Origin: Escherichia coli
Lineage (GTDB): Bacteria > Pseudomonadota > Gammaproteobacteria > Enterobacterales > Enterobacteriaceae
Assembly: GCF_051903065.1 (NCBI RefSeq)
Contig: NZ_CP178438.1
DNA: 64,000 bases
Reading direction: 5' to 3' (one strand)
The notes below the pieces were generated by a model. That model saw only the letters and a program-made list of their open reading frames with translations. It had not been told where the DNA came from and ran no database searches. The position numbers and the translations under genes are program-made. The number at the start of each line of letters is the position of its first letter. Position 1 is the first letter of the stretch. Below, piece after piece: positions 1 through 58,920 of this stretch.

Positions 1-98
1 GATGCCGAAAACCAGTGATTTTTCGTGTTGGTATCTGTGTTGGTATAAGATGATATTGTTTATTATTAACAATTTTAAATCATGAGGTTAAGTCACAT

Positions 99-122
99 GT
101 TCGAGTCCGGCCTTCGGCACCA
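99..122 (+). repeat. 24-bp copy of the 3' end of tRNA-Leu (leuX), likely island attachment-site direct repeat
   Basis: Sequence GTTCGAGTCCGGCCTTCGGCACCA matches the T-arm/acceptor 3' end of leuX as I recall it; the upstream bases do not continue into a tRNA body, so this is a partial copy, not a gene. Confidence 0.6.
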
Positions 123-302
123 CATCGTATGCAAATCGAGTCGCTCAAGGGCGGCTTTTTTTGTGTCTGGAATCCGTTAGTTACCTATCTTTCTCGCTAT
201 TTTAACTCTCTCAGAGCCAGCCAATTTCAACCCATCGCAAACGAAAAATGTTGGTACAGGCGTTGGTATTTTCGGTTCGACATTAATTTGTATTAGCTCA
301 GT

Positions 303-332
303 CCTGATCTGACAGCTATCTGCCAGATCAGG
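303..332 (-). terminator. Strong hairpin 15 nt downstream of hsdR stop (13-bp stem, one mismatch, 4-nt loop); possible terminator or RNA-stability element
   Basis: Inverted repeat CCTGATCTGACAG / CTGCCAGATCAGG read directly; no clear U-tract follows on the minus strand, so the terminator role is uncertain. Confidence 0.35.
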
Positions 333-346
333 TTCGGATTAATACA

Positions 347-3300
347 TTATATCTGCCCGCCTACACCTTTAAACTTCTCAATAAACGCGACGATCTTCTG
401 GAAAACCGTCTGTTTTTTCGTCTTATATTGCGGATTTAACGGACTGAGTTTTGGCAATGTCTCGTTTAATTCCGTGCCATTTTCGGTTGCGTATTCGCGT
501 TTTAAAGACGTGCGAATATAGCGTTTCGCCGCCTCTTCATTGAGATTTTCTTCTTTGATCAATGCTGCTGCTTCACGTTGCTGTTCGCGTTGAGCAAAGG
601 TAAAAAACGCGTCAATGATGCTGGCTTTATCCGGCAAATCATCCAGGTTCGTTTGCTGAATAAAATCGACCACCAATCCTTCTTTGGCACGGTTCCCAAG
701 GCTTGAACGAATTAAGCGTTTGACCTCTTCGGTCATTTCGCCCTTACCTTTGTTTTGTCTGTTGTGTTCGAAAATCAGTCCAAGGATATAATCCAGGTTT
801 ATTTCCTGAGACTTCAGCAAATCGACCTCAAAAACCACGTCATCCCAGTCGGTGGTTGATTTTTCTTTTTTGTCAGCTTCTTTCTCACGGCGCTGCCAGT
901 CACGAATATCGTTATAGGCTGAACGGTAATCCTGAATCTTGCGATCAGCAGGGAGACGAATCGTTTGTAATTCAGCGAACTTTTCATCATCCACATAATG
1001 TTCTGCTTTGAATTTTTCTACCGCAACAGGATCGCTAAGATCGATTTGTTGCAGGGCTTTCAGCATGGCAAATTCATCATAGTTTTGCAGGATGTTCTCG
1101 GCACGCAGGTATTCACCAAACAGTTTTACGAAGTCTTTCTTCTCTTTTTCACTTTCAATATTGGCAGGGTCAGGGAACCGTTGTTCCAGTTCTGAAACTA
1201 CTGCCATAAAGCCGCGTTTAGCTTCACCAGTGGCAGCATCAGTAAAGCCTTCCATATACTCTGCATAACTCTTTTCTAACACCACATTTTTGGTATTTTT
1301 ATCACCAAACAGCGTTATGGCATCAATGGTTGAGCGTTCCAGATCCCGGAAAGTGACGATGTTACCGAAGGTTTTAGTGGCGTTATAAATGCGGTTGGTG
1401 CGGGAAAATGCCTGCATCAGGCCGTGAAAACGCAAGTTTTTATCGACGAATAGCGTGTTCAATGTTGGAGCATCGAAGCCGGTTAAAAACATCCCCACGA
1501 CAATTAACAGATCGATATCTTGATTTTTAACCCGTTGGGCTAAATCACGATAGTAGTTCTGAAAACCGTTACTGTCGGTGCTGAAGTTAGTTTTAAAATA
1601 GCTGTTATACTCACGAATTGCAGCGTCAAGAAACTCTTTAGCACTGCTGTCCATTGCGCTGGTATCAAAAGTTTCATCGGAAATTTCACCAATGGCATTT
1701 TGCTCTTCATTGGCGGCAAAGGAGAAGATTGTCGCAACACGCAGCGGTTTATAAGTAGCCGATTTATTAGCTGCTTCCTCTTGTAACCGTTTAAACGTAG
1801 CGTAATAGGCTTTCGCGGCATCCACGCTACTCACTGCCAGCATGGCATTAAAGCCTTTGGAACTTGGGAAAGTACGGTGGGTCTTCTGGCGGAAGTTATT
1901 CAGAATATATTGCGTAATTTCCTGTATACGCATGGGATGAAGAAACGCCTGCTGATTTTCAGCCGCACTCAGTTTTTTCTCGTCGGTTTCTGTCTCTAAA
2001 GACTTAAACTGTGGCCGCACATCGTTGTAGTCCACCTTGAATTTGAGCACTTTTTCATCACGAATCGCATCGGTAATCACATATGAATGCAATTCACGAC
2101 CAAATACGCTGGCGGTCGTTTCTGAGCCTAAAGCGTTTTCCGGGAAAATAGGGGTACCGGTAAAACCAAACTGATAATAGCGTTTGAATTTCTTCTTCAG
2201 ATTTTTCTGCGCTTCTCCAAACTGGCTGCGGTGACATTCATCAAATATAAACACCACTTGCTGATTGTATACAGGCAGGTCGCTTTCTGCTTTCATCAGG
2301 TTATTAAGTTTCTGAATAGTGGTGACGATAATTTTGTTATCGTCCTTATCCAGATTTCGTTTAAGACCTGCTGTATTTTCCGAGCCGTTAACACTATCTG
2401 GCGAAAAACGCTGATATTCCTTCATGGTCTGGTAATCGAGGTCTTTCCTGTCGACCACAAAGAAGACTTTATCAATAAAGTCCAGTTCTGTTGCCAGACG
2501 TGCGGCTTTAAAGCTGGTCAGGGTTTTACCAGAACCGGTTGTGTGCCAGATAAAGCCACCGCTTTCGGGGGTAGACCAGTTTTTCGCTTTATAGGAGCTG
2601 TTGATTTTCCATAAGATACGCTCAGTGGCGGCAATCTGGTACGGTCGCATCACTAGTAGCGTTTGGCTAATATCGAACACGCTGTAGTTCACTAAGACAT
2701 TAAGCAGAGTATGTTTCTGGAAAAAGGTAGCGGTAAAGTCTTTGAGGTCTTTAATCAGCGTGTTGTCTGATTTCGCCCAATTCATGGTGAAATCAAAACT
2801 GTTTTTATCGCGCTTTGTGGTGTTGGCAAAATAACGGGTATCGGTGCCGTTAGAAATGACAAACAGTTGCAGATACTTAAACAGGGAATTTTCGCTGTTA
2901 AAACTCTCTTTACTGTAACGATGTATTTGGTTGAAAGCCTCACGAATCGCCACGCCGCGCTTTTTCAGTTCGATTTGTACCAGTGGTAAGCCATTAACCA
3001 GGATCGTGACGTCATAACGGTTAGCATGAGAACCCGCCTGTTCAAACTGCTGGATAATCTGCACCTTATTGCGCATGAGATTCTTTTTATCTATCAGATA
3101 GATATTTTCAAGACGCCCGTCATCAAAAATAAAGTCGCAGATATAGTCGATATGAATTTTACGGGTTTTATCCAGGATGCCATCGCTGGGGTTGTCCAGA
3201 TACTGCTCCGTGAAACGCCGCCACTCGCTGTCATTAAACACCACACCATTGAGGTTCTGAAGCTGTTCCCGAACATTGGACAGCATCGCCGACTGTGATT

Positions 3301-3463
3301 TTACCGAAATAAATTCATAGCCCTGATTCCGCAGGTCCTGAATCAGTTCCCGTTCCAGGTCCGATTCGCTCTGGTAGCTGTCGCCTGTTTGCTCAGCTTT
3401 GATGTACTTATCAAGGACGATAAAGTTATTGGATTCAGCAATGGTGTGTGTTTGATGAGTCAT
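347..3463 (-). CDS. hsdR: Type I restriction enzyme R subunit (HsdR), type IC / EcoR124I-like, 1038 aa
   Basis: ORF-track protein starts [14 protein letters not shown] and has the same length (1038 aa) as EcoR124I HsdR as I recall it; DEAD-box helicase motifs (TGSGKT, DECH) present. Confidence 0.9.
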
Positions 3464-3491
3464 AGCGCATCCTTTGTGCCGCCTGGCAAGG

Positions 3492-3521
3492 GCCGGAAGG
3501 GCGTTAAGAGTGACTTCCGGC
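3492..3521. promoter_or_regulatory. Perfect 8-bp inverted repeat (GCCGGAAG..14 nt..CTTCCGGC) in the hsdS-hsdR intergenic region; candidate regulatory element near the expected hsdR promoter
   Basis: Read directly from sequence. Type IC systems are described as having a separate promoter for hsdR; no T-tract, so not an obvious intrinsic terminator. Confidence 0.3.
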
Positions 3522-3584
3522 GCGTAAAAAATAGTCTATATACAGACCGGGTGTTAAGGTGGCCCGGTCGGTAGCAATGGTCAA

Positions 3585-4865
3585 TTAGTTACTGATAGTT
3601 TCAGGTTTGGGAAAACTGAACAGTAAATCACGATAGTACTCGTATTGTTTCTGGCGCAACTCGATTTCACGCGGGAGGCCTTCGGTGATGGAGTTTGTCA
3701 GAGTGTCGAATTTATCGAGTATTGCGACGATACGAGCTTGTTCCTTAAGTGATTTTTCGTGATCTTTAGGATATGGAACCGGAATCATAATTTTTGAAAA
3801 ACCATTAATGAGTAGTGTATTAACTTTTGTTCTGGCTACATACTTTGCTTTTTCAGAAATAAACGAATCGGTTTGCATGTAATAGGAAATAAATTTTGGA
3901 TTCAAAGAATGTCGAAAAGCATAACAGTGATCATGAATAGCGATATCGTCATCCCCAAGCCATGCCACTGCTTTACCAACGTCTTCTACAGTCTCCCCCA
4001 CGTCAGTTATCACGACATCTCCATGTTTGGCATAGCGTAATGACGCTGCCATATCAGCTCTAACCTGTGATAACGAATGAGTTGTGTAAACACCATATCG
4101 TGTATATATCTCACCATAATGGATTACACTGATACCACCATCTTCTACATAATCTGCTTTAGTAAAACGTTTTCCACGAATAAACTCACCAATTTCCCCC
4201 AAAGTCTTCCACTCAACCTCACCCTCTTTAAAACTCAACAACTGGTCGCGATAGTAGTTGTACTGTTTTTTACGCATGGTAAGCTCTGCTGTAAGCTCTG
4301 CTGTAAGCTCAGTAAATTTATCCAGAATCCGAACGATTTCAGACTGGATGGCAAGGGATTTTTCCGGATTGCCCGGGCAGGGGATGGGGATGAGTAGTTT
4401 TGACATCAATGCATTTGAGCTTAGATTCGGCTGTGCTCCGCCCCCTGCAAGGATATAAATAGTCTCTGTATTTAACAATAAAAAATGGTATAAATAATTA
4501 TTGTTTAGAATATTTTCTTTGGGTATAAATTTCCCAACACGTTGGTTAAGATAACATTTTATTCCTTTTTTATAAATTCCCACTTTTCCTGTAGTGGCAC
4601 CTGACATTGCAATCAATATATTTCCCATAGATACCTCAAAGGAGGATAAATCTTCCTTGTAATCATTTAGTGAAAAGTATTTCACCTCATCTAAGTCAAC
4701 ATTAAACCCATCTATATTTGTGATTCTAACTATCGGTAACCCAGTTTCTTTAAATAAGCTGCTTTTAAATGCAAATCCATTTTTAAAATCACAAACATCC
4801 TTCAGGGTTTTCCACTCAACCTCAACCCCATCCAGCAATTTTTCCAGATAACTCAACTCGCTCAT
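3585..4865 (-). CDS. hsdS: Type I R-M specificity subunit (HsdS), type IC, 426 aa, with central TAEL repeat
   Basis: Conserved type IC central and C-terminal regions ([49 protein letters not shown]); start ATG overlaps the hsdM stop (ATGA), indicating translational coupling. Confidence 0.9.
4279..4311 (-). repeat. 12-bp tandem repeat in hsdS encoding (TAEL)2 plus a partial copy; spacer-length determinant of type IC HsdS
   Basis: Plus strand GTAAGCTCTGCT x2 then GTAAGCTCA; the minus strand reads ACT GAG CTT ACA GCA GAG CTT ACA GCA GAG CTT, i.e. [11 protein letters not shown]. Confidence 0.85.
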
Positions 4866-6416
4866 TTCTGCACCCCGCAGCCTTCAATTTCAGCCACAAT
4901 CGCATCAATATCTTTGCGCAACTGGTCGATTTTGCTGACCGTGGTTTTCAGCTCAGCATTCAGCTCACCGATATCGATAATTTCGCGAGTATCTTTCGCT
5001 TCAACATAGCTGCTCACCGACAGGTTATAGTCATTCGCTACAACGGCTTCAAACGCGACAGATTTCGCCAGATGAGCAACATCTTCCTTGCTGGCAAATA
5101 CCTGCATAATCTGTTCGATATGGGCATCGGTCAGGATATTGTTGTTGGTCTCTTTTTTGAACAGTTCGCTGGCGTCAATAAACTGAACTTTGGTATCGGT
5201 TTTATGTTTAGACAGCACCAGAATATTGACGGCAATAGTGGTGCCAAAGAACAGGTTCGGTGCCAGTGAAATCACGGTTTCGACATAGTTATTATCGACC
5301 AGATACTGACGGATTTTCTGCTCCGCGCCGCCACGGTAAAAAATACCCGGGAAGCAAACAATCGCAGCGCGACCTTTGGCCGAAAGATAGTTCAGCGCAT
5401 GTAGTACAAAGGCGAAGTCAGCTTTGGATTTGGGGGCCAGGACGCCAGCCGGGGCAAAACGTTCATCGTTAATCAGCGTCGGGTCATCGCTGCCAATCCA
5501 TTTCACCGAATACGGCGGGTTAGAAACGATGGCATCAAACGGTTTTTCATCTCTGAAGTGCGGCTCAGTCAGTGTATTGCCCAACTTGATATCAAACTTG
5601 TCGTAGTTGATGTTGTGCAAAAACATGTTCATACGCGCCAGGTTATAGGTCGTATGGTTGATCTCCTGACCAAAAAAGCCTTCTTCGATGATATGGTCAT
5701 CAAACTGCTTTTTCGCCTGCAACAACAGCGAACCGGAACCTGCGGCCGGGTCGTAGATTTTGTTAACGTGGGTCTGCCCGTGCATAGCCAGTTGTGCAAT
5801 CAGCTTAGAGACGTGCTGCGGTGTAAAGAACTCGCCGCCTGACTTACCAGCATTCGCGGCATAGTTAGAAATCAGGAACTCATAGGCATCGCCGAACAGG
5901 TCAATCTGATGTTCGTTAAAGTCGCCAAGCTTTAACCCTTCAACCCCTTTCAGAACCGCAGCCAGGCGGGCATTTTTATCCTTAACGGTGTTACCCAGGC
6001 GGTTACTGGTGGTATCGAAATCAGCAAACAAACCTTTGATGTCAGCTTCTGAAGGGTAACCGTAAGCAGAACTTTCGATAGCAACGAAGATGCTGTTTAA
6101 ATCTGCATTCAGTCTGTCATTGGTATTTGCTTTCGCAGCTACGTTGCAGAAAAGCTGACTTGGGTAGATGAAGTAGCCTTTGGTTTTGATGGCATCGTCT
6201 TTAATGTCATCAGTTATTACGCTGTCATCCAGTTTCGCATAACAGATACTGTCATCACCGGCTTCAATATAGCTGGAAAAATTTTCGCTGATAAAACGGT
6301 AGAAAAGCGCGCCCAGAACGTATTGCTTAAAGTCCCATCCATCGACCGAACCTCTGACATCGTTAGCAATTTGCCAGATCTGGCGATGAAGCTCCGCGCT
6401 GCTGAAGACTGGTCAT
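4862..6416 (-). pseudogene. hsdM: Type IC R-M methyltransferase subunit (HsdM) with an N-terminal frameshift (apparent 2-bp deletion in a CGCGCG run at about codon 8)
   Basis: ATG at 6416 with an AAGGA ribosome-binding site reads [17 protein letters not shown] then stop. The frame encoding the conserved body ([16 protein letters not shown]...) has an in-frame TGA at 6413-6415 and no ATG/GTG/TTG start until the TTG at 6031, which is why the ORF track shows only 389 aa. Confidence 0.7.
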
Positions 6417-6722
6417 TTTTTATCCTTTGAATGTGTTTTTAACGTCGGCTTTTGCCGGGATTTTACCGGAAGTTGTTTGGTTTTTCAGATTTGTATGACG
6501 GTGAGGAGGGGATTCAGTACCAGATTGTTAGTGCATCTTACTCAGCATTCACCGCTTGAGTCAGGAGGCTACTTTATATGCCCATCGCCCATCCGTAGGT
6601 GATCAGATAATTTATTGCGAGTCACCTTCCCGATTTTCAATCTCATTATTTACCCAATCTTTCACCAGTGGATAATTCGTCTGCTACTAACGGCGAGTGT
6701 ATTTTTTTACGGATGAAAGATT

Positions 6723-7556
6723 ATGCAAACAGAAGCTGAAGTCTTAACCGATCATAACGAACTAATTTGCTCGACCAGTATTGAGCGTATCGTCACAGGA
6801 CGTGATAGTGCACTGAACCAGATAGCGGCGTTAATCCAAAAGCTTGATGATATCTCCAGCCTGACATCCAGTATTGGCGGTGATGTGGCTGGAACCTGGG
6901 CAATGCGTAATGGATATGCCTTTGATTGCTGGCTGATGCAGCCAACCGACAAAGCGATGCCGGTGATCACCCGAAATATCGATCGCAGTATCTGGCGCGA
7001 TCTCATGCTGAAGTCCGGTATGTTGACTCTGATGGATGCCGAAGCTCGCAGTCAGTGGGCAAAGAATCTGGAGGAGGGCGATCTCCCGGCGATTAGCGAA
7101 GCCAACATCCTGAGTACCTTTGAACAACTTCACCACAATAAGCAGGATGTTTTCGAACGTGGGATTATCAATGTATTTAAGGGATTGAGCTGGGATTACA
7201 AAACCAATAATCCCTGTTATTTCGGTAAGAAGATTATCGTTAACAATCTGGTGAAGCATGACCGATGGGGCTACAGCCTGCACTGGGGCTGGCGGCGAGA
7301 TCAGCTTGCCGATCTGGAACGGATGTTCTATCTGCTGGATGGGAAGGTCATTCCCGATAACCGGCATGATGTTGCGATTCGGTTTATGGACTTCGTTAGT
7401 GCTCACCCGCATGAGCAGGTATTTAATGACGATTTATTTGTCATCCGCTATTACCAGAAAGGCAGTGGGCATATCACATTCAAGCGACTGGATCTGGTGG
7501 ATAAGATGAATGACATTGTGGCGAAGCACTATCCGTCAGCGTTATCAGCAAAATGA
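6723..7556 (+). CDS. Hypothetical protein, 277 aa, no catalytic motif recognised; divergently oriented from the hsd operon, upstream of the McrBC-like pair
   Basis: Clean ORF with ATG start and an AT-rich upstream region; I could not assign a family by eye. Confidence 0.6.
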   Translation: MQTEAEVLTDHNELICSTSIERIVTGRDSALNQIAALIQKLDDISSLTSSIGGDVAGTWAMRNGYAFDCWLMQPTDKAMPVITRNIDRSIWRDLMLKSGMLTLMDAEARSQWAKNLEEGDLPAISEANILSTFEQLHHNKQDVFERGIINVFKGLSWDYKTNNPCYFGKKIIVNNLVKHDRWGYSLHWGWRRDQLADLERMFYLLDGKVIPDNRHDVAIRFMDFVSAHPHEQVFNDDLFVIRYYQKGSGHITFKRLDLVDKMNDIVAKHYPSALSAK

Positions 7557-7914
7557 ATGTCGTATGTTTGCTGTCAATAATGTCGTTACTGGAACCCTCT
7601 GAATTTCGGCATATCCATTTACTGGAAACGATGTTTACCTAAAAACAGTTGATTCCCTATGCAACTAGAAACCTCACACAGGTTGAAAAACGAGTAGCGA
7701 TTTTACGTATGAAAGAATGCTATAGCCTTCTCTGAGAGCCATCAACATCATGCGTTTTGCAGTTAAGTCATCAGATAAATGTGGTGGCTCCAGGGCAGAA
7801 GGTAATTTCAGGATGAAAGTTATTTTTTTTATCACAAAATTTAACATTTTTGAGATTAATCCGATAAGATAAGGCTATCCCAATTTCCCTCCCCCCTACA
7901 TATTGGATTAAGAG

Positions 7915-9969
7915 ATGGTTCAGGATTCATCAGCATTAGCCCCCTTCTTTCGTGCTCAAATTGAAAAAAATAATCAATACAATTCAGTTTGGGGCAAACA
8001 CTACCGCCAGCTTGTAGAACAGATTCAGGCCGAAAAACCAAACTTTTCTGAAGCCACGATTCGGCAGGTATGGTATGAACGTGACAATGGTGTCTCCAGC
8101 CTGATGCAAGGAGGGATGTCATTGGTTGAATTTGAAAATGCACAAAAAGACCTTCTAACGCTCACCCGTCAGATAGCAGAAGAGTGTACACAAGAAAATT
8201 ATAATCGGGTCATTGAACGCCTTATCAAACTTAAAGCGGACGGAGTATTAAATAAGGTATATAGGGCTCTTTGTAATCGTGCTTTTGCAGCAATATACCC
8301 ATCAAAAATTAGCAGTGTCGTGAATGTTAATAATTTTTTTAGTTGCTACAATTATTGCAACAACCATTTCCAGCTAGGTCTTTCCGGAGAACGGGAGTGG
8401 CTGGCTCGCAATGTTGATCTTAAAGAAACGCTAAATCGTGCGCTGGGTGATGATATCGACCCTATTGAGCTGAATATGTCACTTTGGCATCTCTATGCGT
8501 ATGAAATTCAGGATAAAAATGCTATCGGTTTAGTTGGAAGCGAAAGTGCTTTACAAGAAAATGAGCAAGAAGATGATGTTATAAGTTCGCCATTGCCTAA
8601 AAACACAATTCTCTATGGCCCGCCAGGTACAGGTAAAACATATCGTACTATTGAGCTTGCTGTACAAATTTGTGATCCGATCGCTTACTCCCTGCAGGAG
8701 GGTAAGGATGAGAGTGAAAAACGTCGCGAGTTGAAAAAGATTTATGATCAGCTTATCAAAGAAAATCGAGTGCGTTTTATCACCTTTCATCAGAGCTTTG
8801 GTTATGAAGAGTTTATTGAAGGTTTAAGAGCTGAGACTACTGATGACGGTAATGTAAAATACGAAATAAAGGCAGGTATTTTTAAGCAGATATGCGAGGA
8901 TGCCGCCTTTGGTCATGCTGGTGCGCAGGAAATGTTAGATAGCGCACTTACTCGCCTACAAGAACGTTTATCTGAAGGTGAAAATATCACGCTGGAAACA
9001 CAACAGGGTAAGGCCTTCCAGCTGACGTATAAAAGTCAAACCAACTTTGGAATTTTCCCGTCACAATCGAAAAAAGAGGATTTAGGACAGGGTTACAATG
9101 CCTATTTGAAGGATATTCGGCAAGTTTATCAGGATCCACGAGCAAAAGTACATAATCCATCTTATGTACGCAGTATCCTTAACTATTTAATTAATCAACG
9201 TTATCTGCCTCTGAATACTCAGAGCGTAGCTTCAGAAAAAAAGGAAAACTATGTTCTCATTATTGATGAAATAAATCGGGGTAATATTTCAAAAATTTTC
9301 GGTGAACTAATTACCCTTATTGAGCCATCTAAACGGGCTGGTGAGCCAGAATCGCTTAGCGTATTGCTGCCATACTCTTCCACTCCATTTAGTGTGCCGA
9401 ATAACCTTTATTTAATTGGTACCATGAACACTGCTGATCATTCGCTTACTGCACTTGATACTGCACTACGTCGCAGATTTGATTTTGAAGCGATGCTGCC
9501 AGATATTACTGTTCTGAAAGATACTGTCATTAAAGGTATTGATCTGCCTCGTCTATTGCAGACGCTTAACGATCGCATCCAGGTTTTATACGATAGAGAA
9601 CATATGCTGGGGCATGCTTTTTTTATCCCTGTTGTGCAGGCAAAAGAAGACGAAGCTCTGGCATTTGAAAGATTCAAACGGATTATGCGAAATAAGATAC
9701 TACCATTGCTGGAAGAATATTTTTACAATGACTGGCAAAAAATTCGCATGGTACTGGCTGATAACCAAAAAGAGGAAGCACCAGATCTTCAATTTGTACG
9801 TGAGGTGAAATACCAGAAAAAGTATGCCGATCTCTTTGGTGATAACGGAACAGATGACTTGGGAACCAGTTTTCACCTGGCAGCAGAGGATGACAACGTT
9901 TGGGACAATCCAATCGCCTGGCAGCAAATTTATGCACCTCAAAAAGAAAAACGCAGGAGTGCGGAATGA
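7915..9969 (+). CDS. McrB-family AAA+ GTPase (type IV restriction-like), 684 aa, with a non-canonical N-terminal domain of about 230 aa
   Basis: Motifs ILYGPPGTGKTY, FHQSFGYEEFIEG, IIDEINRGNISKIFGEL and GTMNTADHSLTALDTALRRRF parallel the EcoKI McrB GTPase motifs; residues 1-230 do not resemble the EcoKI McrB N-terminal 5mC reader as I recall it. Confidence 0.8.
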   Translation: MVQDSSALAPFFRAQIEKNNQYNSVWGKHYRQLVEQIQAEKPNFSEATIRQVWYERDNGVSSLMQGGMSLVEFENAQKDLLTLTRQIAEECTQENYNRVIERLIKLKADGVLNKVYRALCNRAFAAIYPSKISSVVNVNNFFSCYNYCNNHFQLGLSGEREWLARNVDLKETLNRALGDDIDPIELNMSLWHLYAYEIQDKNAIGLVGSESALQENEQEDDVISSPLPKNTILYGPPGTGKTYRTIELAVQICDPIAYSLQEGKDESEKRRELKKIYDQLIKENRVRFITFHQSFGYEEFIEGLRAETTDDGNVKYEIKAGIFKQICEDAAFGHAGAQEMLDSALTRLQERLSEGENITLETQQGKAFQLTYKSQTNFGIFPSQSKKEDLGQGYNAYLKDIRQVYQDPRAKVHNPSYVRSILNYLINQRYLPLNTQSVASEKKENYVLIIDEINRGNISKIFGELITLIEPSKRAGEPESLSVLLPYSSTPFSVPNNLYLIGTMNTADHSLTALDTALRRRFDFEAMLPDITVLKDTVIKGIDLPRLLQTLNDRIQVLYDREHMLGHAFFIPVVQAKEDEALAFERFKRIMRNKILPLLEEYFYNDWQKIRMVLADNQKEEAPDLQFVREVKYQKKYADLFGDNGTDDLGTSFHLAAEDDNVWDNPIAWQQIYAPQKEKRRSAE

Positions 9970-11276
9970 AATCTTCCAGTCATTTCACTGTGTTCGAATA
10001 CGGGCATTTAGTGAGTGAGGAAGGTGATGCCCGTATAAATAATGCGGTAGTGCTACCTGCAGACCTATTTAAATGGCTTGAGCTGCGCTGTCTGAAAGAC
10101 GATGCTGATAATACTCATCGTTTGCTCACCCTTAGCAGCCGGAATGGAGTAAAAACGCTGCAGGTAAAAAACTATGCAGGAGTAATCTCACTGCCAGGGG
10201 GGCGATTTCTCGAAATCCTGCCTAAAACAGGTCAGGATAATGAGGATACTGTTCGTCAACAAATACTGATGATGTTACGTACGTTAAAATCATTTCGTCA
10301 TATTGCCTCCTCTGAATCTGGCGTCAAAATATCTAAAATGCCTCTGATGGACATCTTTATTCAACAATTTATAGAGAGCGTGCGTAAGATTGTGCAGAGA
10401 GGGTTAAAACGTGACTATTTACGTCAGGAAGATAATCTTCCATGGATAAAAGGAAGATTACGGATCTCTGCACAATTAAGCAAAAACTGTATTAGGCGGG
10501 ATCTTTTTCAGGTGGAGTATGACGAGTACAGCGTCAATCGTCTGGAAAACCGGATACTCAAAACTGCAATCAATAAGATTAGTCGCCAGACCAGTAATCC
10601 ACAATTATTACAGCAGATAACACAGCTGCAGTTTCACTTTGAAAATATCACGTCAGTTCATGATGCTTATATAGCTTTCGAGCAGTTACACTTTGATAGA
10701 CACATGCATCACTATGAGCAAGCATTAGCGTGGGCGAAGATGATTTTATTGGGCGATTCTCCACACTGTATGTATGGGGATGTTAATGCTTTTTCACTGC
10801 TTTTCCCGATGGAGGCTGTTTTTGAATCTTTTGTGACGACATGGATGCGTTATCGTTATTATGATAAATGGCGAGTGGACGCACAGGTAAGTTCAAAAAA
10901 TCTGATTAGTTATAACGGTAAAGCTTTATTTAAGCTGCGGCCTGATATTTGTTTACGGCCTCGTAAAAGTACTACTGGTTCAGTTATTACCTGTGATATT
11001 AAATGGAAGATAGTAAATGGCAGAAAGGACAGTCTTGAACAATCTCAAGCCGATCTCTACCAAATGCTTGCCTATGGATTGAATTACCAGGAGGGGGAAG
11101 GTGATATGATTTTGATATACCCCTATCATAACGGATTTAATCAGCCATCTCCTCATCCTTATGAATTTAGCCATCAGAAGGAAAATAGGTTACGTTTATG
11201 GGTTGTACCTTTCTTTATTGGCGAGAGTTTACAGACATCAGAGTTGCATTTTCCTAGTGGGGCTGAATTTATTTAG
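9966..11276 (+). CDS. McrC-like PD-(D/E)xK nuclease partner, about 436 aa, translationally coupled to the McrB-like gene
   Basis: ATG overlaps the McrB-like stop (ATGA at 9966-9969); C-terminal PDICLRP...ITCDIKWK fits a PD..D-x-K nuclease motif. The ORF-track start at 9900 lies inside the upstream gene and is probably too far 5'. Confidence 0.75.
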   Translation: MKSSSHFTVFEYGHLVSEEGDARINNAVVLPADLFKWLELRCLKDDADNTHRLLTLSSRNGVKTLQVKNYAGVISLPGGRFLEILPKTGQDNEDTVRQQILMMLRTLKSFRHIASSESGVKISKMPLMDIFIQQFIESVRKIVQRGLKRDYLRQEDNLPWIKGRLRISAQLSKNCIRRDLFQVEYDEYSVNRLENRILKTAINKISRQTSNPQLLQQITQLQFHFENITSVHDAYIAFEQLHFDRHMHHYEQALAWAKMILLGDSPHCMYGDVNAFSLLFPMEAVFESFVTTWMRYRYYDKWRVDAQVSSKNLISYNGKALFKLRPDICLRPRKSTTGSVITCDIKWKIVNGRKDSLEQSQADLYQMLAYGLNYQEGEGDMILIYPYHNGFNQPSPHPYEFSHQKENRLRLWVVPFFIGESLQTSELHFPSGAEFI

Positions 11277-11338
11277 TATTTGTAGGCTATCTCTTTATAC
11301 AATTTATTTGTCTATTTGTATGCACAAGATAGCCTACC

Positions 11339-12211
11339 TCACCCCCTAAAAACCTCTTTCCGATGCCACTCCACAAACCCCTCAAAAGGGTAATTTTTAC
11401 GCACCTGTGGCAACGCAATAGTTTTCCCGTCAAAATCCCAGAATAATCTCTCAACGATCCCTCCGCCGTTTACCGCATCCGAGACCAGTATCCGCATATT
11501 TTCATCCAGGCCAATCGATCCTTTATCAAAGGCTTTATGGTGTATTGCGCAAAGTGCCAGACCATTGGGGATTTCACAAGGGCCGCCGTGCTGTTTCCAT
11601 TTTATATGCGCCGCTTCCAGCGCGACGGTGGTGTCGTCGTGGCGCATATTAAAGCCACATATCGCGCACTGGTATTTATAAGCGCGTAATACATTTTTGC
11701 GAAATAACGGGTCGCGCTGTTTACGGATTTGCTGGAGATCAAAACCCAGCTCGTCAGCAATTTCTTCCTGAATACTCTCGGTGAAGTGCGCTTCGAGTAT
11801 CTGTTGCGCCAGAGTATTGATGAGTTTTTTATTGCCGGTTACCAGGGCGTAGTGCTGTTCATCGAAACCGCCTGCAACGTGGTATTCGTTCAGTTCCTTC
11901 ACTGGCGGTTGTCGGCTGCTCCCTGCTGTTGAGCAACGCTCGGCATTGTGTAATTGCCAGAATCCGTCGCCTTGTAATCGCCAGAACGGCATATCAGGTC
12001 GGTACTGTGAACGCTGTGGCCCAAAACGTTCCAGTAAACTGTGCAGAGGTTCGTAGATTTCCGAGCCATAATCGAAAAGGCGCGGATGTCCATGCAGGTA
12101 TCCCGCTAATACGTATAGCAATAACAATGGCTTATGCGGCGCGCGCTGTTCACCCTTATGCCAGATTTTTATATTGGCAATTGCCTGCTGTAGCGATTTA
12201 CTGGAAGCCAT
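11339..12211 (-). CDS. HNH-family nuclease (C-terminal CAICG...HIKW...CAIHH motif) with an uncharacterised N-terminal domain; candidate modification-dependent restriction enzyme
   Basis: Cys/His HNH motifs in the C-terminal third; start chosen at ATG 12211 (AGGGA ribosome-binding site, protein begins MASSKSL); the ORF track extends to a TTG at 12268. Confidence 0.65.
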   Translation of the reverse strand: MASSKSLQQAIANIKIWHKGEQRAPHKPLLLLYVLAGYLHGHPRLFDYGSEIYEPLHSLLERFGPQRSQYRPDMPFWRLQGDGFWQLHNAERCSTAGSSRQPPVKELNEYHVAGGFDEQHYALVTGNKKLINTLAQQILEAHFTESIQEEIADELGFDLQQIRKQRDPLFRKNVLRAYKYQCAICGFNMRHDDTTVALEAAHIKWKQHGGPCEIPNGLALCAIHHKAFDKGSIGLDENMRILVSDAVNGGGIVERLFWDFDGKTIALPQVRKNYPFEGFVEWHRKEVFRG

Positions 12212-12347
12212 TGATATCCCTGGCAGTGAAATAATTGCGATCATGCTCGCAAATTTTCTGCTGTTCAAGCCTGCAAGTGAAGATATATTACTTTGATCTC
12301 ATTTGTTTTTTTGCTGCTTGTTCTGAGAACGTATAAGGACATTCTCT

Positions 12348-12998
12348 ATGAATAAACTCCCCGATCATCTTCCGCGGCGGTATATTATCGAAGCTATTCA
12401 TTTATGGGATGCGGGAGAAACTCATCAGTTCCAGCCTGCACGGTTGTATGAGATTGAATATCATGGCCGACGTTACCCCTCGAAGGCGATTGCTGGCATC
12501 GCAGCGACATTGATGACGGGGACGCAATTTACCCCTGCGGATTTCACCGGCGGAATAAAATCTAAATGCGTCAAGCTACTTATAGATCAGGGATTTCATA
12601 TTCATCAGGATAAAGCCGCTGCGGCTCCCATAGCCGATGTTCTGTTCCCGGATGAGTTGCCGTCGCAGGGGACCTACGTTGAAGGTGCGGCGATAAAGGT
12701 GACGGTAAACAGCTATGAACGCGATAAAAACGCTCGCGAGAAAGCAGTCGAATATCACGGATGCCAGTGCAACGTATGCGGCGTTGATCTGGTGAAGATC
12801 TATGGCGATATCGCTGAGGGCTTTATCCATATGCATCACCTGGTGCCGCTTTCAGCCATTAAAGAGGATTACCTGCTGGATCCAGTTAATGATTTACTTC
12901 CTGTGTGCCCTAATTGCCATGCGATGTTGCACCGACGCAAACCACCGTTTACGCCGGAGGAGTTAAAAGCGTTGATGGATGCGAATAAATCAAATTAA
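12348..12998 (+). CDS. HNH nuclease, 216 aa (C-terminal CQCNVCG...HMHHLVP...CPNCH, McrA-like HNH) with a distinct N-terminal domain
   Basis: HNH zinc-finger-type motif resembling the E. coli McrA C-terminus as recalled; transcribed divergently from the neighbouring HNH gene. Confidence 0.7.
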   Translation: MNKLPDHLPRRYIIEAIHLWDAGETHQFQPARLYEIEYHGRRYPSKAIAGIAATLMTGTQFTPADFTGGIKSKCVKLLIDQGFHIHQDKAAAAPIADVLFPDELPSQGTYVEGAAIKVTVNSYERDKNAREKAVEYHGCQCNVCGVDLVKIYGDIAEGFIHMHHLVPLSAIKEDYLLDPVNDLLPVCPNCHAMLHRRKPPFTPEELKALMDANKSN

Positions 12999-13005
12999 TG
13001 AACGC

Positions 13006-32643: not shown

Positions 32644-32870
32644 AATAGTTACCTTTTATGAGTATTTCACTGATGTTTAGAAAAATAGATAAATTTTTCT
32701 GTAGTAAAAAGAGAAGTAAACAAATGACATGCATGTTTCTGTTGTAGTGATATCAACTCTACACAGTGATATTAAAGGGTAGGAAACACTCTAAAGTATC
32801 AAAAAACGCTCATTTAAAATTATTTGCATGCAATTTAAAAGCATATCTTATTACTGGTAATGACTCCAAC

Positions 32871-33374
32871 TTATTGATAGTGTTTTATGTTCAGATAATG
32901 CCCGATGACTTTGTCATGCAGCTCCACCGATTTTGAGAACGACAGCGACTTCCGTCCCAGCCGTGCCAGGTGCTGCCTCAGATTCAGGTTATGCCGCTCA
33001 ATTCGCTGCGTATATCGCTTGCTGATTACGTGCAGCTTTCCCTTCAGGCGGGATTCATACAGCGGCCAGCCATCCGTCATCCATATCACCACGTCAAAGG
33101 GTGACAGCAGGCTCATAAGACGCCCCAGCGTCGCCATAGTGCGTTCACCGAATACGTGCGCAACAACCGTCTTCCGGAGCCTGTCATACGCGTAAAACAG
33201 CCAGCGCTGGCGCGATTTAGCCCCGACATAGCCCCACTGTTCGTCCATTTCCGCGCAGACGATGACGTCACTGCCCGGCTGTATGCGCGAGGTTACCGAC
33301 TGCGGCCTGAGTTTTTTAAGTGACGTAAAATCGTGTTGAGGCCAACGCCCATAATGCGGGCTGTTGCCCGGCAT
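32871..33374 (-). CDS. insB: IS1 transposase InsB (expressed as InsAB' by -1 frameshift)
   Basis: Canonical IS1 InsB sequence, overlapping insA. Confidence 0.95.
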
Positions 33375-33568
33375 CCAACGCCATTCATGGCCATATCAAT
33401 GATTTTCTGGTGCGTACCGGGTTGAGAAGCGGTGTAAGTGAACTGCAGTTGCCATGTTTTACGGCAGTGAGAGCAGAGATAGCGCTGATGTCCGGCGGTG
33501 CTTTTGCCGTTACGCACCACCCCGTCAGTAGCTGAACAGGAGGGACAGCTGATAGAAACAGAAGCCAC
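33293..33568 (-). CDS. insA: IS1 protein InsA
   Basis: [43 protein letters not shown]...; A6C frameshift site TTAAAAAAC lies at its 3' end. Confidence 0.95.
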
Positions 33569-34092
33569 TGGAGCACCTCAAAAACACCATCATACACTAA
33601 ATCAGTAAGTTGGCAGCATCACCCTTATTACTAATTGGAATTTGATGTTGCTATATTGAGGTCTATATTAATAATGCCTGTGAATGGTATTTTTGATGTA
33701 TTTGATATGTTATTAATTTATATTATTTACAAACTAATTGTTTCAAATAATACATAGATGATTATGCGGAAATAAATAATTTCCCACCGGAATTAAGTAG
33801 CAGCGGTGACAAGTATTTTCATCTACGTAACTATTCGGAATATTCAGAATATACTAGCGGTTTTTTTTTGAGTTTGATGATTTTTATCAAATCATGACTT
33901 TTTTCCTGAAAAGTCAGTAGATATTCATAGGCAAGTAAGGTTTTATACTTTGCTGACAGGATTCAGGCCTGTCTCAGACTGACATGGATGTAATGAACAA
34001 AAGGGAATGGCTATGGAAAATGAGCATCAATACAGTGGTGCCCGGTGTTCAGGGCAAGCCGCATATGTTGCTAAACGTCAGGAGTGCGCAAA

Positions 34093-58510: not shown

Positions 58511-58849
58511 TTAGCGTGGCGTTTTGCTACTAATCACCCCAATAAATTCCTGCACCTGCTTTTGTTTACGCACCGATAGCTTGCACACCTTTCGCAGCGA
58601 CTGCATCAGTTCGCTCTCTTCGATGGCGGGTGGTTGGGCGGTGAGGACAATACAGCCTTCCATCACTTTGACATCTACCGCCGTGCCAGTGGCAAAACCG
58701 GCGGCTTCCAGCCACTGACCTTTCAGGGTGATGGCGGGAATACGGCTGTAATCCGGGTAGCGGCTCGCATAACTCACGGTTAATTGACGGTTATTTGCCG
58801 GGGAGACTTCTGCTTCGAACGGTTGTGCAATAGAATGCGTGTCAGTCAT
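58511..58849 (-). CDS. symE: SOS-induced toxin SymE (type I toxin-antitoxin, AbrB-fold)
   Basis: [52 protein letters not shown]... matches SymE; adjacent to hsd as in K-12. Confidence 0.9.
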
Positions 58850-58920
58850 AACTGCTATTCCTTGAAAATAGTGATTGTGATGAGCGGTGCGGGTGTGTTG
58901 GCGCACATCCGCACCGCGCT
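58840..58920 (+). ncRNA. symR: Probable SymR antisense RNA overlapping the symE start and 5' UTR (ends approximate)
   Basis: Placed from the known symE/symR arrangement (antisense RNA of about 77 nt covering the symE translation start); boundaries not determinable by eye. Confidence 0.4.

Follow-up and report, generated by a model that had tools for sequence, protein, structure and literature searches.

A 24-bp copy of the leuX 3' end beside a defence cluster in Escherichia coli: a probable attR junction of a P4-family integrase island

Features between the island terminus and nanS

The stretch of Escherichia coli DNA analysed here, referred to throughout as the window, is 64 kb long. Its first 346 bp hold a conserved island terminus, a short duplicate of the end of the leucine tRNA gene leuX, the native leuX trailer and terminator, and an arm-like segment that reaches the 3' end of a restriction-modification (R-M) operon; from there a run of defence genes extends to nanS, at which the conserved chromosomal backbone resumes (Table 1).

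Table 1. Features at the left end of the window, through nanS
Feature	Position	Strand	Basis
Right terminus (P arm) of upstream genomic island	1..98	+	Conserved terminus before the repeat
Two tandem 12-bp arm-type repeats, TGTTGGTATCTG / TGTTGGTATAAG; putative integrase arm sites	26..49	+	Repeat family D1
24-bp direct repeat, probable attR core	99..122	+	T-arm 3' strand, acceptor 3' strand and CCA of leuX
leuX trailer and intrinsic terminator (stem-loop 138-157, then T run)	123..170	+	Terminator-like site
Putative relic P' arm of older leuX island, integrase gene lost; tandem 12-bp repeats at 249-272	171..293	+	Homology to K-12 spacer
27-nt imperfect inverted repeat I1, candidate hsdR terminator	289..346	.	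Just past hsdR stop, at boundary of arm relic and R-M cassette
hsdR, type IC (EcoR124I family)	347..3463	-	PADLOC REase_I; EcoR124I HsdR structures
hsdS, specificity subunit	3585..4865	-	PADLOC Specificity_I, E = 1e-146
hsdM, disrupted	4862..6416	-	Alignment to intact hsdM of two other strains
DUF4942 gene	6723-7556	+	RefSeq annotation of 23CRST027 segment
McrB-family gene	7915-9969	+	RefSeq annotation of 23CRST027 segment; weak PADLOC matches
McrC-family gene	9966-11276	+	RefSeq annotation of 23CRST027 segment
Phosphorothioate-DNA-binding HNH endonuclease gene	11339-12268	-	RefSeq annotation of 23CRST027; PADLOC
Second HNH endonuclease gene	12348-12998	+	RefSeq annotation of 23CRST027; PADLOC
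nanS; conserved backbone resumes, right edge of variable leuX-nanS segment	13003..13986	-	K-12 homology

The genes nearest to the repeat encode a type I R-M system, to whose products PADLOC assigns the R, S and M subunits. HsdR aligns over its full length with the EcoR124I HsdR structures (residues 1-1038, 2253 bits) and is essentially EcoR124I HsdR, which bears out the type IC label given in the first-pass annotation of this DNA; the hsdR stop codon lies 225 bp from the repeat, inside the 250 bp that had been proposed. For the system to function all three subunits would have to be intact, but hsdM has lost 2 bp from a CGCGCG run near codon 8 (between positions 6394 and 6395), and its longest remaining open reading frame is 389 aa. 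In strain 23CRST027 the identical hsdM carries a frameshift annotation. Either the R-M system may be inactive or the CG run may be acting as a switch. The annotation of the remaining cluster genes (6723 to 12998) was taken from segments of 23CRST027 that are 99.9-100% identical to the window.

At position 13003 homology to K-12 returns, at 97.8% identity, and nanS is annotated at the equivalent K-12 position. The G+C content of the defence cluster, 39-48.5%, falls under the usual value for E. coli. Base composition was considered as a boundary marker and rejected, the neighbouring nan and fim genes being equally low in G+C. Farther to the right the window contains an IS1 copy (32850-33624) and an IS903B copy (46338-47395), the latter at a site that differs from those of the two IS903B copies in 23CRST027, one of which interrupts mcrB while the other follows the HNH gene. 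Near the end of the window the SymR antitoxin RNA (58844-58920) and a second type I R-M system nearby make up the classical immigration control region (hotspot #36), so that the window spans both neighbouring defence hotspots.

The 24-bp repeat and the island terminus to its left

Positions 99-122 of the window read GTTCGAGTCCGGCCTTCGGCACCA and are exactly the last 24 nt of leuX (24/24 identity), a gene of 85 nt that is identical in the three reference genomes used, K-12 MG1655, 23CRST027 and Ecol_AZ155. The match ends precisely at 24 nt, and the 61 bases that precede it (38-98) bear no resemblance to the tRNA body. A single copy of the 24-mer is present in the 64-kb window even when up to 3 mismatches are allowed, and 100 shuffles yielded 0 chance matches. 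The second copy that the first-pass annotation had proposed to seek was found neither in the window, where degenerate forms with as many as 7 mismatches in 24 were considered, nor in the K-12 KpLE2 region at up to 6 mismatches. ARAGORN detected no tRNA gene in the 64 kb, and Rfam at gathering thresholds detected no tRNA in the window, symR being its sole report. The repeat is thus what it had been taken for, an exact leuX 3' end that stands alone and that no tRNA body precedes. The annotated 20-bp attP core of phage P4, GAGTCCGGCCTTCGGCACCA, is contained within the 24-mer.

The 98 bases to the left of the repeat are the right terminus of a genomic island that is common in the species. Among 5426 complete E. 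coli genomes, approximately 984 contain one match over at least 80% of window 1-200, a threshold that demands at least 58 of the 98 terminus bases together with the repeat and the trailer, and the junction is accordingly present in roughly a fifth of complete genomes. In all seven genomes inspected the terminus follows a CP4-type module, with genes for a GTPase, a DUF932 protein, an antirestriction protein, RadC, YeeU/CbtA and a DUF957 protein. The best full-length match to window 1-2500 in the complete-genome collection has 98.4% identity.

Two genomes that share bases 1-98 were followed to the other end of the island, and both have an intact leuX with an adjacent tyrosine integrase gene upstream, at a distance of 52.7 kb in Bongo and 70 kb in Ecol_AZ155; among the cargo of these islands are fec, Ag43, fimbriae and Hachiman. 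Over 97% of its length the Bongo integrase shares 59.5% identity with P4 Int, and its domains run in the order Arm-DNA-bind_3, Phage_int_M, Phage_integrase; the AZ155 integrase is 59% identical to that of Bongo. The assignment of the island to the P4 family is made through the integrases of these relatives. The window itself begins 98 bp to the left of the repeat, and it is from the same relatives that we infer an intact leuX and an integrase gene upstream in the source strain. The proposal that an island junction stands beside the defence genes is well supported by these genomes, in which leuX and a P4-family integrase lie some 53-70 kb upstream of the shared terminus.

Arm-type repeats on both sides of the core

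The core is flanked by two pairs of tandem 12-bp repeats, the left pair (TGTTGGTATCTG / TGTTGGTATAAG, 26-49) standing 49 nt from it and the right pair (TGTTGGTACAGG / CGTTGGTATTTT, 249-272) 126 nt from it. The same arrangement is annotated in the phage P4 record, where the attP core is flanked on either side by two tandem 12-bp arm repeats, at distances of 53 and 112 nt. The heptamer GTTGGTA occurs 7 times in 64 kb, and 4 of these occurrences flank the core. The arm motif in the window is of the TGTTGGTA type, as it is in the leuX-integrase spacers of K-12 and Bongo, while P4 has the motif TTGGGGGCAT and the AZ155 spacer bears that P4 motif; the difference between the two groups implies that leuX is the target of P4-family integrases of at least two specificity classes. 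Judged by their layout, the TGTTGGTA repeats are putative binding sites for an integrase. A comparison of window 1-346 with phage genomes at the DNA level returned short leuX-related matches and did not find P4, and the link to P4 was made only from the protein sequence of the integrase and from the attP features annotated in the phage.

Breakpoints and the island-free allele

When window 1-25000 was compared with the 5426 complete genomes, the best matches all started at query position 99. The two closest strains, 23CRST027 and 23CRST031, are 99.7-100% identical to the window over 99-25000 and 100% identical over 39001-64000, and both have the gene order ahr - leuX - hsdR; window 99-122 corresponds exactly to the 3' end of their tRNA gene, and no island is present. 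Window 1-98 is missing from these island-free relatives, whose homology begins at base 99. Matches to window 1-200 fall into three classes, namely those that are full-length, those that end at 121/122 and continue into other DNA (for example GTEN_97), and those that start at 99 beneath an annotated tRNA-Leu. A break in homology at each of the two edges of the 24-mer is what marks site-specific recombination at that core, and together with near-identical strains that have an intact leuX and no island it upholds the earlier suggestion that the repeat is the footprint of an integrase-mediated insertion.

The sequence of the repeat also bears on the age of the junction. All six comparators that were aligned have a 23-nt repeat which lacks one G of the acceptor-stem strand relative to the perfect 24-mer of the window, and two of the six also show a P4-like T at position 4 of the repeat. 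An 81-bp junction was found in 298 of the 5426 genomes, and its perfect sequence in one of the 298, strain 357900. A perfect 24-mer, in conjunction with closest relatives that lack the island and are identical from base 99 onwards, suggests an integration that was recent and independent, or else a recent precise loss of the island in those relatives. Gene conversion from leuX may be an alternative source of the perfect 24-mer.

Trailer, putative relic arm and the variable segment to the right

To the right of the repeat the window continues with DNA that is native to leuX, for positions 123-170 lie directly 3' of the intact gene in 23CRST027. This trailer and terminator are retained after the repeat in six of seven island-bearing genomes inspected, GTEN_97 being the exception, despite differing downstream cargo. 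What comes after the terminator differs in each strain inspected: in EcN the same repeat and terminator lead into genes for a type IIS R-M system and in STEC367 into those for a SNF2 protein and a methyltransferase, Bongo has AbiE where the window has McrBC, and in GTEN_97 an integrase/MobH element comes immediately after the repeat.

Between the terminator and hsdR, the window resembles the spacer that separates leuX from intB in K-12, with 75.7% identity over window 123-300. The homology stops at about 293, some 15-20 nt short of the start point of intB in K-12. Across genomes this arm exists as two discrete classes, the type found in the window, which is joined to hsdR in 318 genomes, and the K-12 type (about 77% identity), present in 2311. 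The equivalent arm of strain 357900 has a third motif, GCGGGTA, and leads into an N-terminal remnant of an integrase. No integrase gene was found between base 122 and nanS in the window, where the arm gives way instead to the 27-nt inverted repeat and to hsdR, 3' end first. The flank of a naive attB has no cause to look like a P' arm, and positions 123-293 are therefore read, from their sequence, as the probable left arm of an earlier, related leuX island that is without its integrase. Neither a right-end repeat nor a P-arm relic of this older islet was found near nanS, and GTTGGTA is absent there, so that the argument for an island origin of the islet is made from its left arm.

By itself the hsdRSM operon (window 357-6419) is common to many E. 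coli and Klebsiella plasmids, at 95.5% identity, and the R-M module appears to move independently of leuX integrases. In K-12, scraps of the defence cluster lie between yjhR and nanS (L006, 41103-41626) and are homologous to window 6611-6731 and 11944-12376, that is, to the DNA just upstream of the DUF4942 gene and around both HNH genes. These scraps indicate that K-12 once had the defence cluster and lost it by deletion. The first-pass annotation had drawn its comparison with the KpLE2 element that K-12 carries upstream of nanS, and that comparison is correct.

The first-pass annotation had also taken the defence genes as horizontally acquired cargo at leuX, and this claim divides in two. Horizontal acquisition stands, given the variation of the cluster from strain to strain and the presence of the R-M operon on plasmids, and the cluster is cargo of the leuX hotspot; membership of the repeat-bounded island does not stand. 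The cluster lies outside that island, as can be told from the island-free strains, which have it directly after an intact leuX, and it sits in what is probably an older integrase-less relic.

Origin of the junction and its alternatives

The interpretation favoured here is that window 99-122 is the core of an attR created when an island of the P4 integrase family inserted into leuX, with a probability of about 0.9. In such an event the attP of the island, acted upon by a P4-family tyrosine integrase, would have recombined with the 3' end of leuX; an intact leuX would have been rebuilt at the far (left) end of the island, beyond the window, and a 24-bp duplicate of the leuX 3' end would have remained at the right end. 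The 24-mer would then be the seam between a later-integrated island and an older, stranded defence islet.

Of the competing explanations the one that survives best is nonetheless improbable. It accepts that the repeat originated as a true attR and supposes that homologous recombination or an inversion, acting between CP4-type modules of different islands, later separated its left flank from leuX, in which case the DNA upstream would come from another locus. There is a precedent in strain 357900, where the sole perfect copy of the junction in the collection (L012, NZ_CP038859.1, 19932-20600) is in an ssrA (tmRNA) island about 1.8 Mb away from the leuX-type arm of the same strain, a relocation that is probably due to a large rearrangement between CP4-type modules. 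As that strain demonstrates, the left flank of the junction need not always be leuX-linked. In 357900, however, the DNA on the right side moved too, whereas the right side of the window is collinear with leuX-nanS-fim for at least 25 kb, and the island is linked to leuX in both genomes that were traced far enough upstream.

There is very little chance that the repeat is instead a leuX pseudogene whose 5' part was lost to a deletion or a transposon, as opposed to a duplicate made by site-specific integration. Within the 24 bases themselves a truncated tRNA gene could not be told apart from such a duplicate, and IS elements are plentiful in leuX islands, but the breakpoint coincides within 4 nt with the P4 attP core, and the sequence on its left side is the conserved end of an island, with P4-like arm repeats, and has no IS end. 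Genomes with the same terminus, moreover, still have a complete leuX gene at the opposite end of the island, and all that sets the island-free allele apart is that it lacks everything to the left of base 99.

Equally hard to credit is the notion that the repeat is the left end of an island that runs rightward to nanS with the defence cluster as its cargo. The short distance from the repeat to the first defence gene (225 bp), the low G+C content of the cluster and its strain-to-strain variation might all be cited in its favour; against it, the identical cluster directly follows intact leuX in island-free strains, the interval from base 122 to nanS has neither an integrase gene nor a second repeat, and the island terminus, preceded by its CP4-type module, lies to the left. 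The cluster as cargo of the repeat-bounded island was rejected on the evidence of the island-free strains 23CRST027 and 23CRST031, which carry it. A reading of the 24-mer as no more than the 3' end of a complete leuX gene inside the window, to which its identity and the native trailer and terminator that come next might point, is contradicted by positions 38-98, which do not match leuX, and by ARAGORN and Rfam, which find no tRNA.

Consequences for the leuX hotspot

If the repeat is an attR, as preferred above, it marks where two layers of foreign DNA meet at the busiest defence hotspot of E. coli. The upstream island would be capable of precise excision, given an attL and a working integrase, and is probably still excisable; the type IC R-M, McrBC-family and HNH cluster would on such an excision remain behind. 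With no further repeat downstream, the defence cluster could not itself leave by integrase-mediated excision. The boundary is useful for annotating the limits of islands and for deciding which genes travel together.

As an attR-type junction at leuX the feature is of an already known kind, at a known hotspot, and is ordinary; the integrase-less P' arm relic ahead of the defence cluster is only mildly new. Directly behind leuX the islet appears to have retained the whole of a left (P') arm, arm-type sites included, which breaks off at the point where an integrase gene would be expected to start, and a related island integrating before it would yield a seam of P arm, core and P' arm that re-creates an attP-like site. 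From this one may venture that the integrase-less islets which fill hotspot #37 in most E. coli are decayed P4-family integrative islands, and that a resident integrase could, by way of such seams, act on the stranded cargo in trans. We consider this generalization rather unlikely; were it true, it would offer a route for turnover of the defence systems whose mobilisation a 2023 pan-genome survey left unexplained.

Comparison with known leuX elements

The tRNA gene leuX is among the most often used integration sites of its kind in E. coli (PMC7545054). The attP/attR system of phage P4 is a close parallel to the junction described here, sharing the target gene, the 20-bp core inside the 24-mer and the layout of tandem 12-bp pairs (at 53/112 nt in P4 and 49/126 nt in the window), and the integrases of related islands have 59.5% identity to P4 Int and possess the Arm-DNA-bind_3 domain. 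The two differ in arm motif, TTGGGGGCAT in P4 and TGTTGGTA in the window, which implies another specificity class of integrase; in the identity with leuX, which in the window is 4 nt longer than the P4 core and thus 24 bp; and in scale, P4 being an 11.6-kb satellite phage and the element upstream a genomic island of 50-70 kb with a CP4-type module.

KpLE2 of K-12 (leuX-intB ... yjhR) has the same integration site, and its leuX-intB spacer carries repeats of the TGTTGGTA type. It differs from the window in that K-12 has no right-end leuX repeat and its defence cluster is reduced to scraps, whereas the window keeps an intB-type arm without the integrase gene. The Fec/Ag43 islands PAI-S88-leuX and PAI-ED1a-leuX, known from extraintestinal pathogenic (ExPEC) and commensal strains and listed at leuX in S88 and ED1a, share fec and Ag43 with islands that have the terminus found in the window (PMC7545054).

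PAI II536 of uropathogenic E. coli 536 is likewise integrated at leuX and has direct repeats of the leuX 3' end at its boundaries, although its cargo is haemolysin and P fimbriae. It excises, transfers and reintegrates specifically at leuX by means of a P4-like integrase (PMC3202238), and the published PAI II536 primer PaiII_53rev from the same study is the reverse complement of window 98-116.

The leuX region as a whole corresponds to defence hotspot #37, which is occupied in 97.3% of E. coli genomes, nearly always by defence systems, and in which 68% of the occupied cases have no detectable mobile element, the mode of mobilisation having been left undetermined in the 2023 survey (PMC10121019). 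A 2025 review places type IC R-M and phosphorothioate-related defence at the leuX hotspot (PMC12707154). The cluster in the window, between leuX and nanS, is materially no different from other occupants of hotspot #37, and the integrase-less arm relic that the window has next to leuX hints that defence islets of this type are decayed integrative islands.
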